Shown here piece by piece: positions 32,401 to 35,400 of a stretch of DNA of 64,000 nucleotides. Location of the stretch: assembly GCA_944336475.1 (NCBI GenBank), contig CALVLD010000001.1, forward strand, positions 65,524-129,523. The letters run 5' to 3'. The first letter of the stretch is position 1; the number at the start of each line of letters is the position of its first letter. This DNA comes from an uncultured Clostridia bacterium (lineage in GTDB: Bacteria > Bacillota > Clostridia > Christensenellales > CAG-138). Made by a program: the position numbers.

Positions 32401-35400
32401 ATTAAGGAAATGTACGTCTCCCGTCGCCACAACGGGCTTGCCCAGAGCATCGCCAAGCTCCATCACCCTGAGGTTGAACGCACGAAGCTCGTTCTCGTCT
32501 GCTGCCATGCCGTTTCTTAGCATAAAGGCATTGTTGGCAAGCGGTTGTATCTCAAGGTAGTCGTATCCCTTGGCTATCCTTAACTGCTCCTCAAACGGCA
32601 GCTTATGAATAATGGATCTGAACACCTCGCCACGCTCACATGCAGAGCCTACAATAAGCCCCTCTCTATGCAGGTTAAGCAAGCTCCTCGGTATCCTCGG
32701 GCGCTTGCGATAAAACTCCAGGTGTGCATATGATACGAGCTTATAGAGATTCTTAAGTCCTGCCTTATTTGCTGCAAGCAGCGTTATATGATAGAGCGGA
32801 AGTTTGGCGTCGTCCGTGTTGGTACAGTCCCAGAAGGGCAGTTGGCTTATTCCCCCTACAGCCAGCCTTCTCAGCAGATCCTTAAATCGTTCCGCCAGTT
32901 TATCCGCCGCTTCGGCGGCAGGCAGCACCGACCCTTCAAGGTCATAGTGGGCGACTGCTCCCTCCATCATGCTGTAGTTCTCTATTGCAAGGCTCATGTC
33001 CTTGTTCAGCAGTCCTACGTCCACATACCTACTGGGTATCCGGCTGTCATTTAATGAGCGCAGTGCGGATACCGTTTCCGCATCGTACGCAACCAATGCT
33101 GCCCCATCAGCAAACCGAATGAACGCATTTATCGCTTCCGCAGGATTGGGCGCGTCCGCAATAATGTCATTCGTTATGCGGCACAGTTCCGAAATGCGCT
33201 TTGGAATTGCTGCCGACGGTGCAGCGAAAGTATGGAATCGAGCTGTTTCATTGCCGTTCGAGTCCAGTGCAACGGCGCCGATTTCAAACACGGCGCATTT
33301 GGCGCCGCTGCCCGAAAACGTTGCAGCAACCGCAATATACCTGTCTGGCATTGGCCGCAGCTCAGAATCATCAAGCAGATAGCCCTCGCAGCCGAATATA
33401 ACCTTTATCTTGTTTGCCTTCGCAGCCTTCATGGCTTCGGGAAGAGCATGCACGACGCCATGATCCGTTATGGCAATAGCCCTGTGGCCCCAGCGTGCCG
33501 CCGTGGCAACGACTTCTGATACCCTTGTGAGTCCGTCCATAGCTGACATCTGCGTGTGAAGATGGAGCTCGACCCTCTTGCCTTCGTGTGAGTCATCAGT
33601 ACGCTTTGGTGCATCTTTGCGGTTTATGTCGTTTGCAAAGAGCACATAATCCCGCAAATAGTTGTCATAGCGATAATTGCCCCTTACGATGGCCATGTCC
33701 CCTGCGGCCTTGATATCATTGAGGCTTTTTATTGTGCGAGGGGCAATATTTTGGTCTGGAAACAGCTTTATCGTAATCGTGTTCGTTTTGTCTGAGACGG
33801 TGAGCCTTATTATAGTGTGCGTCTTGTCTCGGGTATCCGTCGCCTCAATATCGATGATCATTCCCAGAACGGTGACATTGCCCGTTCGGTCGTCGATATC
33901 AGACATTTTGGTTATATTCGGACGCCTTATCTCCCTGCCGAATACCACATCTTTTGCGCTAATGGAAGGAGACGCACTCCTCGGCTTGTTCTTCTCAACC
34001 GGTTTTGCGCTGCGCACACGCTCGGGAGCACGTCCGCTGTCACGCATGACATCGCGCGAGCTCATTACACCCGTGGGAGCGTCTGTATTTTCAGCCACGG
34101 TTATGCGAACGCTCCACCCCCAGAGCTTCTCCGCAGCTGCACGCAGCTCTGCTATATATTGTTGAGTGATGACACGCATAAATACGAGTGGCAGAAGCAT
34201 ATCGTAGCGGCTCTCGTTGCCGAAGAGCCCACGATATTTGAACACGGAAAGCTGAATAATCGGCGCAATCTCCGGAGCGATCTGTCCCCATGTTCTCTTG
34301 AGCAGATCAATGCCTGCATCGATATCGGCGTCAAACATCCTATACGGAGCGTCACTATACCTGAAATGCAAATCAACTGCCCGCACGCCAAGCTCGCTGC
34401 ATACATAGGCGCTTATACAGTCATTATCCCTTGGAGTAAGAGGCATATCCGCAGTCATGTCGATTTTACAGGTATTGGATGCGCTATATCTTACTATGCG
34501 TTCAATTATGCATGACTCATTCTCTATCAGTTCACGGCCGTACCTTATCCGATCCATATCCGTCATTTTCTGCCTCCGCTATCACGTCCGCAATAAATCT
34601 GTCTATAATGCCGGGCAATGCGCCGGAATAACATATAGAGCCGTTTTTGAAAACGACCGCATTGACCGTTCCGAAGGCTATGCCCATATCTGCTTCACGA
34701 GCCTCTCCAGGGCCGTTCACCGCACAGCCCATTACGGCGATGCGCATATGCCTGTCCGTCGCCGGCAAGGCGCTCTTTACACGTTCAACTATGGATGACA
34801 GATCCACCCTTGTCCTTCCGCAGGTGGGACAGCTTACCACCTCTATACCCTTGCTACGCACCCCTGCGGCCGCAAGTATGTTTTGTGCGGCCCTGACCTC
34901 CTGCACGGGATCGCCCGTTATCGAGACCCTTATGGTGTCTCCTATGCCGTCAATAAGTAGTGCGCCTATGCCTATCGCCGATTTTATTATGGCATCCTCG
35001 CCTGAGCCTGCCTCCGTAACGCCGACGTGCAGGGGATAGGCCGTCGTCTGCCTTGCGAGCCGGTATGCCTCTATCGTCGTCTTGACGGTGGATGCTTTAA
35101 GCGAAAGCACTATGTCGCTGAAAGCAAACCTTTCAAGCAGTTCTGCGTGGCGCAGAGCGCTCTCGACCATGGCTTTTGCGGTCACTCCATGCTTAACAAG
35201 CAAGTCCTGCTCCAACGAGCCACCGTTTACACCGATGCGCACAGGTATGCCGAGATCCTTAGCAACGGCGGCGAGCTCCCTGACCTTTGCATCGGAACCG
35301 ATATTGCCTGGGTTGATCCTCACCTTATCGACGCCATTCTTCATTGCGCCTATGGCAAGCCTGTGGTCAAAATGTATGTCTGCAACGAGCGGTATGTGGA

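Follow-up and report, generated by a model that had tools for sequence, protein, structure and literature searches.

A PolC replicase from uncultured Clostridia keeps a DnaQ-fold domain predicted to be catalytically dead beside an intact PHP metal site

The polC gene of an uncultured Clostridia bacterium, found in a 64,000-nucleotide (64-kb) stretch of contig CALVLD010000001.1 (assembly GCA_944336475.1; hereafter the window), encodes a PolC-type DNA polymerase III (Pol III) alpha subunit whose DEDDh domain is present yet predicted to be unable to act as a catalyst, with the 3'-5' exonuclease activity of this insert expected to be absent. None of the five DEDDh catalytic residues is kept under the phmmer, MAFFT or hhalign register, and small or hydrophobic residues replace them at all five positions (A414, T416 or a gap, V499, L548 and A553). 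With all five lost, proofreading would therefore have to come from elsewhere. As the best explanation we propose PHP-based proofreading, combined with a redundancy among proofreaders that would have permitted the loss of the DnaQ site, and we consider this reading reasonably probable. The DnaQ domain is regarded as a hallmark of PolC and as its working proofreader, and PolC, an antibiotic target, has been studied almost wholly in Bacilli.

The coding sequence is an uninterrupted open reading frame (ORF) of 4251 nt (window 30316..34566, minus strand, as are all PolC features below) for a protein of 1416 aa. The DnaQ-fold insert, a putative pseudo-exonuclease delimited with hhalign, AlphaFold2, Foldseek and Pfam RNase_T, takes up residues 405-575 (32842..33354). 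An earlier note, made from the sequence of this DNA alone, had translated window 32842-33345 as residues 408-575, and we obtained the same translation at the same coordinates. The Exo I remnant YIAVAATFSG (residues 410-419; 33310..33339) was placed by phmmer opposite YVVFAVATTG of E. faecium PolC (PDB 9qpc; A431, A433), and the natural A414 and T416, which stand for Asp and Glu, fall in this alignment on the positions of the engineered substitutions D431A and E433A. PDB 9qpc is the Exo-null D431A/E433A form of that enzyme, in which exonuclease activity was abolished and polymerase activity was robust (PMC12592400). MAFFT and hhalign put a 1-residue deletion at the Exo I Glu, and neither alignment leaves an Asp or Glu there; the loss of both acidic residues, which the earlier note had read at A414 and T416, is borne out in each register. 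Like the engineered mutant (PMC12592400), the natural PolC is changed at these two Exo I positions; unlike it, the natural protein lacks the remaining three catalytic residues as well, and the sequence similarity of its domain is down by about half.

The Exo II remnant LVAYDAETV (residues 491-499; 33070..33096) aligned in both MAFFT and hhalign with VVAHNAKFD, with V499 in the place of the Asp of canonical HNAxFD, as had been read before. Exo III lies elsewhere than first supposed. The earlier note took AHYD as the motif, with its Asp kept at D542 and only the His lost, but MAFFT, hhalign and the register of the last helix in the AlphaFold2 model place the true Exo III position at SVLPAAEAADK (residues 546-556; 32899..32931), where the HHRAVDD of canonical NHHRAVDDAEA stands opposite VLPAAEA. 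The His is indeed gone, although the residue in its place is L548, and the Asp is gone as well (A553), which brings the losses to five rather than four. D542 itself (32941..32943) is a loop residue out of the Exo III register, as judged from hhalign and from a predicted local distance difference test score (pLDDT) of <50 at segment residues 141-144, and the loop around it is variable or deleted in relatives. It falls within a subclade-specific stretch, residues 528-544 (window ~32935-32985), that reads NYSMMEGAVAHYD here and DYSMESGCAPISGRYE in relatives P0003-P0032; the stretch is well conserved within the P0003-P0032 subclade, deleted in P0033-P0048, and modelled by AlphaFold with low confidence.

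Homology of the insert to working exonuclease domains is evident at the level of profiles. A global hhalign comparison of the degenerate-clade profile with the canonical PolC exo profile gave a probability of 99.96% and an E value of 4e-38 over 177 columns, and no shifted register that would restore Asp or Glu, a possibility raised in the earlier note, was seen in the profile alignment. Fold and homology thus place the insert in the DnaQ family, while the five catalytic residues that characterize the family are missing; the description of the domain as present but inactive-looking holds. Exo segments had to be trimmed before alignment, MAFFT having scattered the segment when it was aligned with full-length homologues. 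Counted from E394 to H593, the insert is 198 residues long here, and its length is 189-211 aa in the degenerate clade versus 203-221 aa in canonical PolCs. An AlphaFold2 model of the insert, built from a degenerate-only multiple sequence alignment, reached a pLDDT of 88 and a predicted template-modelling (TM) score (pTM) of 0.85, and its top PDB matches in Foldseek were the exo domain of E. faecium PolC (9qpc), E. coli epsilon (2ido), the exo domain of DinG and other DEDDh nucleases, with TM values of 0.6-0.67 overall and 0.62-0.67 for PolC, epsilon and DinG. Pfam RNase_T matched in part, over residues 423-498 in the N-terminal half of the insert (31.6 bits; gathering threshold 24).

Mean pairwise identity of the insert is 28% within the degenerate clade versus 53% for canonical exo domains. 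The insert positions conserved at >=80% are only hydrophobic core residues, which are common to canonical exo domains, and no new polar motif was found among the positions that reach this level in degenerate inserts. The PHP domain and polymerase core, in comparison, are as conserved as in canonical PolCs or more so, with a core identity of 76% within the degenerate clade versus 70% among canonical PolCs. Across three alleles of an abundant relative, P0057, the ratio of nonsynonymous to synonymous rates (dN/dS) was 0.04-0.12 for the insert versus 0.03-0.04 for the C-terminal part with the polymerase core, values drawn from few substitutions (nonsynonymous differences, Nd, 1-3; synonymous differences, Sd, 7-9) in a relative that is 53% identical and not of this species. 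A comparison of the window with P0121, from the same cluster, gave no informative dN/dS, as their coding DNA is identical, and the P0057 population was used instead. We infer from these results that the insert is a conserved pseudo-exonuclease, folded and selectively constrained, and not debris. In PolC the exo domain interrupts the PHP barrel between its strands 3 and 4 (PMC12592400), and because the insert sits at this point, its non-catalytic role is most probably architectural, in the service of the PHP domain and polymerase.

The trait extends well beyond the window. Two homologue searches supplied our comparison set, the nearest 192 PolC clusters at 90% identity, of which 111 were degenerate and 81 canonical. 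The five catalytic positions are invariant as DEDHD in all 81 canonical relatives; among the degenerate ones, 97 keep 0/5 catalytic residues and 14 keep 1/5. Scores of a canonical PolC-exo hidden Markov model on 91 loci were bimodal, with intact domains at 190-294 bits, degenerate domains at 21-58 bits and none between. Judged from these comparisons, the degeneracy is an old trait of a large uncultured Clostridia lineage and not a single-gene error. The earlier note had allowed for a known lineage-wide trait with demonstrated activity; the lineage-wide extent was found (111/192 clusters), and the remainder of that description was not.

All relatives that carry names are metagenome-assembled genomes (MAGs) from gut and rumen samples (Christensenellaceae bacterium, Candidatus Pelethousia sp., and Clostridia, Clostridiales or Bacillota bacterium), and the second homologue search, started from P0054, returned MAG names only (Christensenellaceae bacterium and Candidatus Pelethousia sp.). 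Some clusters of relatives are very abundant, with 2,500-3,800 member sequences. No cultured species with the trait appeared in a scan of genome contigs by exact 8-mer seeding, which has a limited reach and gave a best match of 57% identity. The degenerate-domain profile, run against 1.84 billion representatives, returned mostly fragments and generic DnaQ proteins (13 at E<=1e-30) and gives no usable clade size. We also rejected the idea that the P0070 cluster holds truncated PolCs: its 356-aa members are IspG, which is encoded upstream and was co-clustered with the PolC relative as an artefact of clustering.

A degenerate insert could also come from faulty sequencing or assembly, or belong to a pseudogene in decay or to an accessory paralogue that sits beside a canonical polC, and the window does come from a metagenome assembly; one Clostridia genome with two PolCs is, moreover, on record (Timinskas 2014, PMC3919608). 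The uninterrupted 1416-aa frame speaks against an error, as does the finding of an identical protein on 12 contigs that stem from separate samples and assemblers, so the sequence error that the earlier note had considered is not supported; the occurrence of the degeneracy in all 111 clusters adds to this. A pseudogene is contradicted by a dN/dS far below 1 in the relative P0057. As for a paralogue, the housekeeping ispG-polC locus is common to degenerate relatives and to one intact-Exo relative, which makes the two forms orthologues of separate lineages rather than co-resident paralogues; no assembly was represented twice among the 80 best genome loci. These explanations are effectively refuted, and we give them hardly any credence.

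Beyond the insert, the protein is a full-length PolC. It scored 1505.8 bits against the PolC equivalog NF001688 (cut-off 873) and 1366.4 bits against TIGR01405 for full-length PolC (cut-off 1043), and Pfam recognized PHP, DNA_pol3_alpha, finger and HHH_6 domains. The architecture, N-terminal domain (NTD)-OB-PHP(insert)-Pol3-HhH, is that of the family, as are the palm aspartates, the Zn module and the dxr-rseP-ispG/proS-polC context; the gene order around polC, pyrH-frr-uppS-cdsA-dxr-rseP-ispG-polC, is a housekeeping one. The gene is the orthologous, essential housekeeping PolC replicase of this uncultured Clostridia lineage. Its polymerase core (residues 800-1280; 30727..32169) was defined by Pfam DNA_pol3_alpha and finger and aligned strongly to G. 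kaustophilus PolC 3F2B; it holds the catalytic palm motif PDIDLNF (945-951), GHDDP (1072-1079) and the Zn module CPQC(892)/CPKC(917). At the extreme C terminus lies QISMF (30319..30333), a beta-clamp-binding-type motif comparable to the QITFF, QLSFF and QIELF of other PolCs (Timinskas 2014 Table S1, PMC3919608). The N-terminal part of the PHP domain (residues 326-400; 33367..33591; Pfam PHP E=7e-33) carries the motifs ELHLHT, ITDHG and FGCEG with ligands H335, H337, D368, H369 and E394, and the C-terminal part (residues 590-790; 32197..32799) carries TGDVHF and, by ligand alignment, H593, C643, D717 and H719. The palm, the Zn module and the PHP motifs ELHLHT, ITDHG and TGDVHF, all of which the earlier note had called intact, were found in the sequence. 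The end of the ispG (gcpE) ORF overlaps the start of polC by 35 nt (window 34532-34566), which suggests translational coupling.

The history of the loss was approached with a neighbour-joining (NJ) tree (Kimura distances, bootstrap) of the PHP and polymerase-core columns, from which the exo insert was left out. A clade that unites all degenerate PolCs with two groups of PolCs that are shorter (1300-1375 aa) and have Exo intact received 100% bootstrap, and monophyly of all degenerate sequences received 0%. The degenerate trio P0064/P0067/P0089 joins the intact-Exo short PolCs at 95%. Its Exo I lesion is an E->K change with no deletion; the first search set holds 87 degenerate sequences, and the 84 outside the trio all lack one residue at the Exo I Glu. 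Because the tree and the differing Exo I lesions agree, they point to at least two probable independent inactivations of the DnaQ site. The shorter PolCs belong to sister lineages (P0068/69/80/82-87, P0094-98 and locus L091 10001-13951) that have an intact DEDDh domain and the same ispG-polC locus, and their N-terminal region is apparently shortened.

A long branch leads to the degenerate clade in the PolC tree, and this, together with the repeated loss of DnaQ function, would suit a lineage in which nothing compensates for the dead domain: a less accurate PolC would lean on polymerase selectivity and mismatch repair, and a higher mutation rate would be tolerated. Against this stand the PHP ligands, perfectly conserved in 111/111 degenerate sequences, and the strong purifying selection on housekeeping genes. 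Members as abundant and widespread as those in the clusters of 2,500-3,800 sequences also fit a chronic mutator poorly, and we regard the absence of any compensation as very improbable.

The nine PHP metal ligands form the motif HHDHEHCDH here and in 192/192 relatives, the 111 degenerate ones included. This nine-ligand motif is the operational criterion for an 'active' PHP domain (Timinskas 2014, PMC3919608; 2026 survey, PMC12926913), and the PolC in the window matches the PHP-exonuclease pattern HHDHEH[C/H]DH at every position. In C. thermocellum PolC, the substitution C669Y produces a ~30-fold mutator although the DnaQ domain is intact (bioRxiv 10.1101/2021.07.30.454558), and C669, the PHP Cys ligand of that enzyme, aligns with C643 here. 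Clostridia usually carry three motif-competent proofreaders, namely PolC-PHP, DnaE1-PHP and PolC-DnaQ (2026 Nucleic Acids Research survey, PMC12926913). In the route that we favour, the DnaQ/DEDDh site would have been inactivated while the ~200-residue insert was kept as a folded non-catalytic module, 3'-5' editing would be performed by the trinuclear metal site of the PolC PHP domain, and the PHP site of a co-resident DnaE1, typical of Clostridia, might contribute too. Because PolC-DnaQ, PolC-PHP and DnaE1-PHP would be redundant, the DnaQ site could have been lost more than once without harm. We advance more tentatively, at somewhat under even chances, the narrower proposal that the lineage runs PolC with PHP-only proofreading and has exapted the dead DnaQ fold, for instance to brace the PHP barrel or to guide the 3' end of the primer.

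Several points weigh against PHP-based proofreading with a permitted DnaQ loss. The nine ligands are equally conserved in 81/81 clostridial PolCs with DEDHD intact, so they do not mark out the DnaQ-dead clade; no residue of PHP separates degenerate from canonical PolCs or co-varies with the state of Exo in that comparison, and PHP is under no greater constraint, measured against the polymerase core, in degenerate PolCs than in canonical ones. An exonuclease activity of the PolC PHP domain is so far deduced from conservation of the motif and one mutator allele, C669Y, whose effect could be structural. The independent losses were drawn from NJ with Kimura distances and not from maximum likelihood, the dN/dS values carry the limits given with them above, and the searches for DnaE1 and stand-alone DnaQ covered the 64-kb window and the polC flanks. 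Between degenerate and canonical PolCs as wholes, no discriminating residues emerged at stringent thresholds, and at relaxed thresholds none lay in the PHP active site. A clade-specific compensatory change in PHP, for which GDVH here against GNVH in Bacilli was a candidate, was rejected: the D is also present in all 81 canonical clostridial PolCs, and the difference is therefore one between Clostridia and Bacilli.

Fidelity could instead centre on DnaE1, which, with an intact PHP and possibly an epsilon-binding patch, might do much of the synthesis or edit PolC errors in trans. Clostridia and Negativicutes, home of nearly all Exo-less PolCs, pair PolC with DnaE1, and DnaE1 has been raised as possibly their main replicase (Timinskas 2014, PMC3919608); the DnaE1 PHP is 'active' in Clostridia (PMC12926913), and trans-proofreading between the two polymerases has been described in B. 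subtilis, there in the opposite direction. The presence of DnaE1 in this clade is assumed, however, no dnaE having been found in the 64-kb window or in the <=10-kb flanks of 91 polC loci. A demoted PolC is also hard to reconcile with a core, clamp motif and NTD at least as conserved as in canonical PolCs and with the dN/dS of 0.03-0.04 in the C-terminal part, and a DnaE1-centred arrangement leaves the 100% conservation of the PolC PHP ligands unexplained. We consider it unlikely, though the most serious of the other sources of fidelity.

A separately encoded DnaQ-like DEDDh exonuclease that binds PolC, perhaps on the dead domain, and edits in trans, in the manner of E. coli epsilon, would account for the purifying selection on that domain through a docking role, and stand-alone DnaQ homologues average >3 per bacterial proteome (PMC12926913). 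Yet the 64-kb window and the flanks of polC at the 91 loci, those of the clade included (<=10 kb per side), yielded neither a DEDDh ORF nor a second C-family polymerase, and on the insert no surface or polar motif is conserved that would point to a docking site. PolC organisms are, in addition, generally reported to lack an epsilon subunit (bioRxiv 10.1101/2021.07.30.454558). Editing by such a protein is, in our estimate, a decidedly improbable alternative, and PHP-based proofreading remains the reading that we prefer.

Comparison with known systems helps to place this PolC. About the closest case is that of the Exo-less PolCs: 6% of PolCs lack the Exo insertion, in Clostridia and Negativicutes plus one extra PolC copy in Thermotogae (Timinskas 2014, Nucleic Acids Research 42:1393, PMC3919608). 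These are true deletions, as in Acidaminococcus fermentans YP_003399045, a protein of 1191 aa with PHP 9/9 that is paired with DnaE1 (PMC3919608 Table S1). The present PolC resembles them in having no functional DnaQ, a PHP motif HHDHEHCDH complete at 9/9, a C-terminal clamp motif and, presumably, the PolC+DnaE1 setting of Clostridia. It differs in that a DnaQ fold of ~200 residues is kept, where the Exo-less proteins, ~1190-1210 aa long and devoid of the insert, have ~14 residues between PHP motifs III and IV (GVEGYL-CHSREDKKN-YHIILLA). The earlier note's remark that proofreading by PHP or in trans would be unusual for Firmicutes was accordingly too strong: Exo-less PolCs occur in Clostridia and Negativicutes (PMC3919608), and an active PHP is usual in Clostridia for both PolC and DnaE1 (PMC12926913).

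Canonical PolCs (B. subtilis, G. kaustophilus 3F2B, E. faecium 9QPC) share with this one the NTD-OB-PHP[Exo]-Pol3-HhH layout, palm, Zn module, clamp motif and locus, and differ in their intact DEDDh site, of which 0/5 is left here. The Bacilli enzymes are its reciprocal, with DnaQ active and PHP broken, an N standing at the position of D717 (GNVH; G. kaustophilus, E. faecium), while PHP is 9/9 here. A nine-ligand PHP without a functional cis DEDD editor is also what M. tuberculosis DnaE1 and Thermus Pol III alpha possess (Rock 2015; Banos-Mateos 2017, PMC5636811; Stano 2006); PHP exonuclease activity has been demonstrated in those enzymes, which are of the DnaE1 type, whereas for PolC it is deduced from the motif and the C669Y mutator. 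Finally, Pol I orthologues (Taq, B. subtilis Pol I) and PolB2 have likewise kept a DnaQ fold after loss of DEDD (PMC12926913), but those are repair or accessory polymerases, unlike this replicase.

The remainder of the window holds other replication and repair genes, PriA (24982-27255, minus strand), HolB, the Pol III delta' subunit (47129-48046, plus strand), and RecJ (60031-62430, minus strand), all ordinary and none a DEDDh exonuclease. A large serine recombinase at 729-2459 (plus strand; Resolvase, Recombinase, Zn_ribbon_recom and DUF4368) may mark the edge of a mobile element or prophage. The bacterial large signal recognition particle (SRP) RNA (RF01854, 197 bits) lies at 14811-15078 (plus strand), and downstream of it, where many Firmicutes have dnaX, is a 566-aa SpoIIE/PP2C-type phosphatase (15220-16920). 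The 64-kb window has no tRNA genes. Three ORFs had no Pfam match at E<=1e-5: 42560-44800 (plus strand, 746 aa), 50374-51870 (minus strand, 498 aa) and 13807-14742 (minus strand, 311 aa). The 746-aa ORF comes after a GntR regulator and an ABC ATPase and may be an unrecognised permease.

That a clostridial PolC can lack a working DnaQ editor is already known, and a PHP-only PolC fits the known clostridial pattern. What appears to be undescribed is that a replicative Pol III alpha subunit has kept a DnaQ domain which is catalytically dead yet under selection, that the trait extends over a large lineage of uncultured bacteria, and that it arose more than once. Such a dead-but-kept domain runs against the generalisation of the 2026 survey that inactivation in Pol III alpha subunits spares the DnaQ proofreader (PMC12926913). 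It also carries a warning for annotation, in that an RNase_T match in a PolC need not mean a working DEDDh editor. The three-proofreader redundancy of Clostridia would seem to have been resolved in various ways, by deletion of Exo (Acidaminococcus, Negativicutes), by inactivation of a retained Exo (here) and by inactivation of PHP (Bacilli). If proofreading in this lineage is PHP-only, it would be a natural experiment showing the PolC PHP domain to be a genuine proofreader, and a clade with a dead DnaQ, a perfect PHP and a constrained polymerase offers ready-made enzymes in which PHP editing may be tested without an engineered background.

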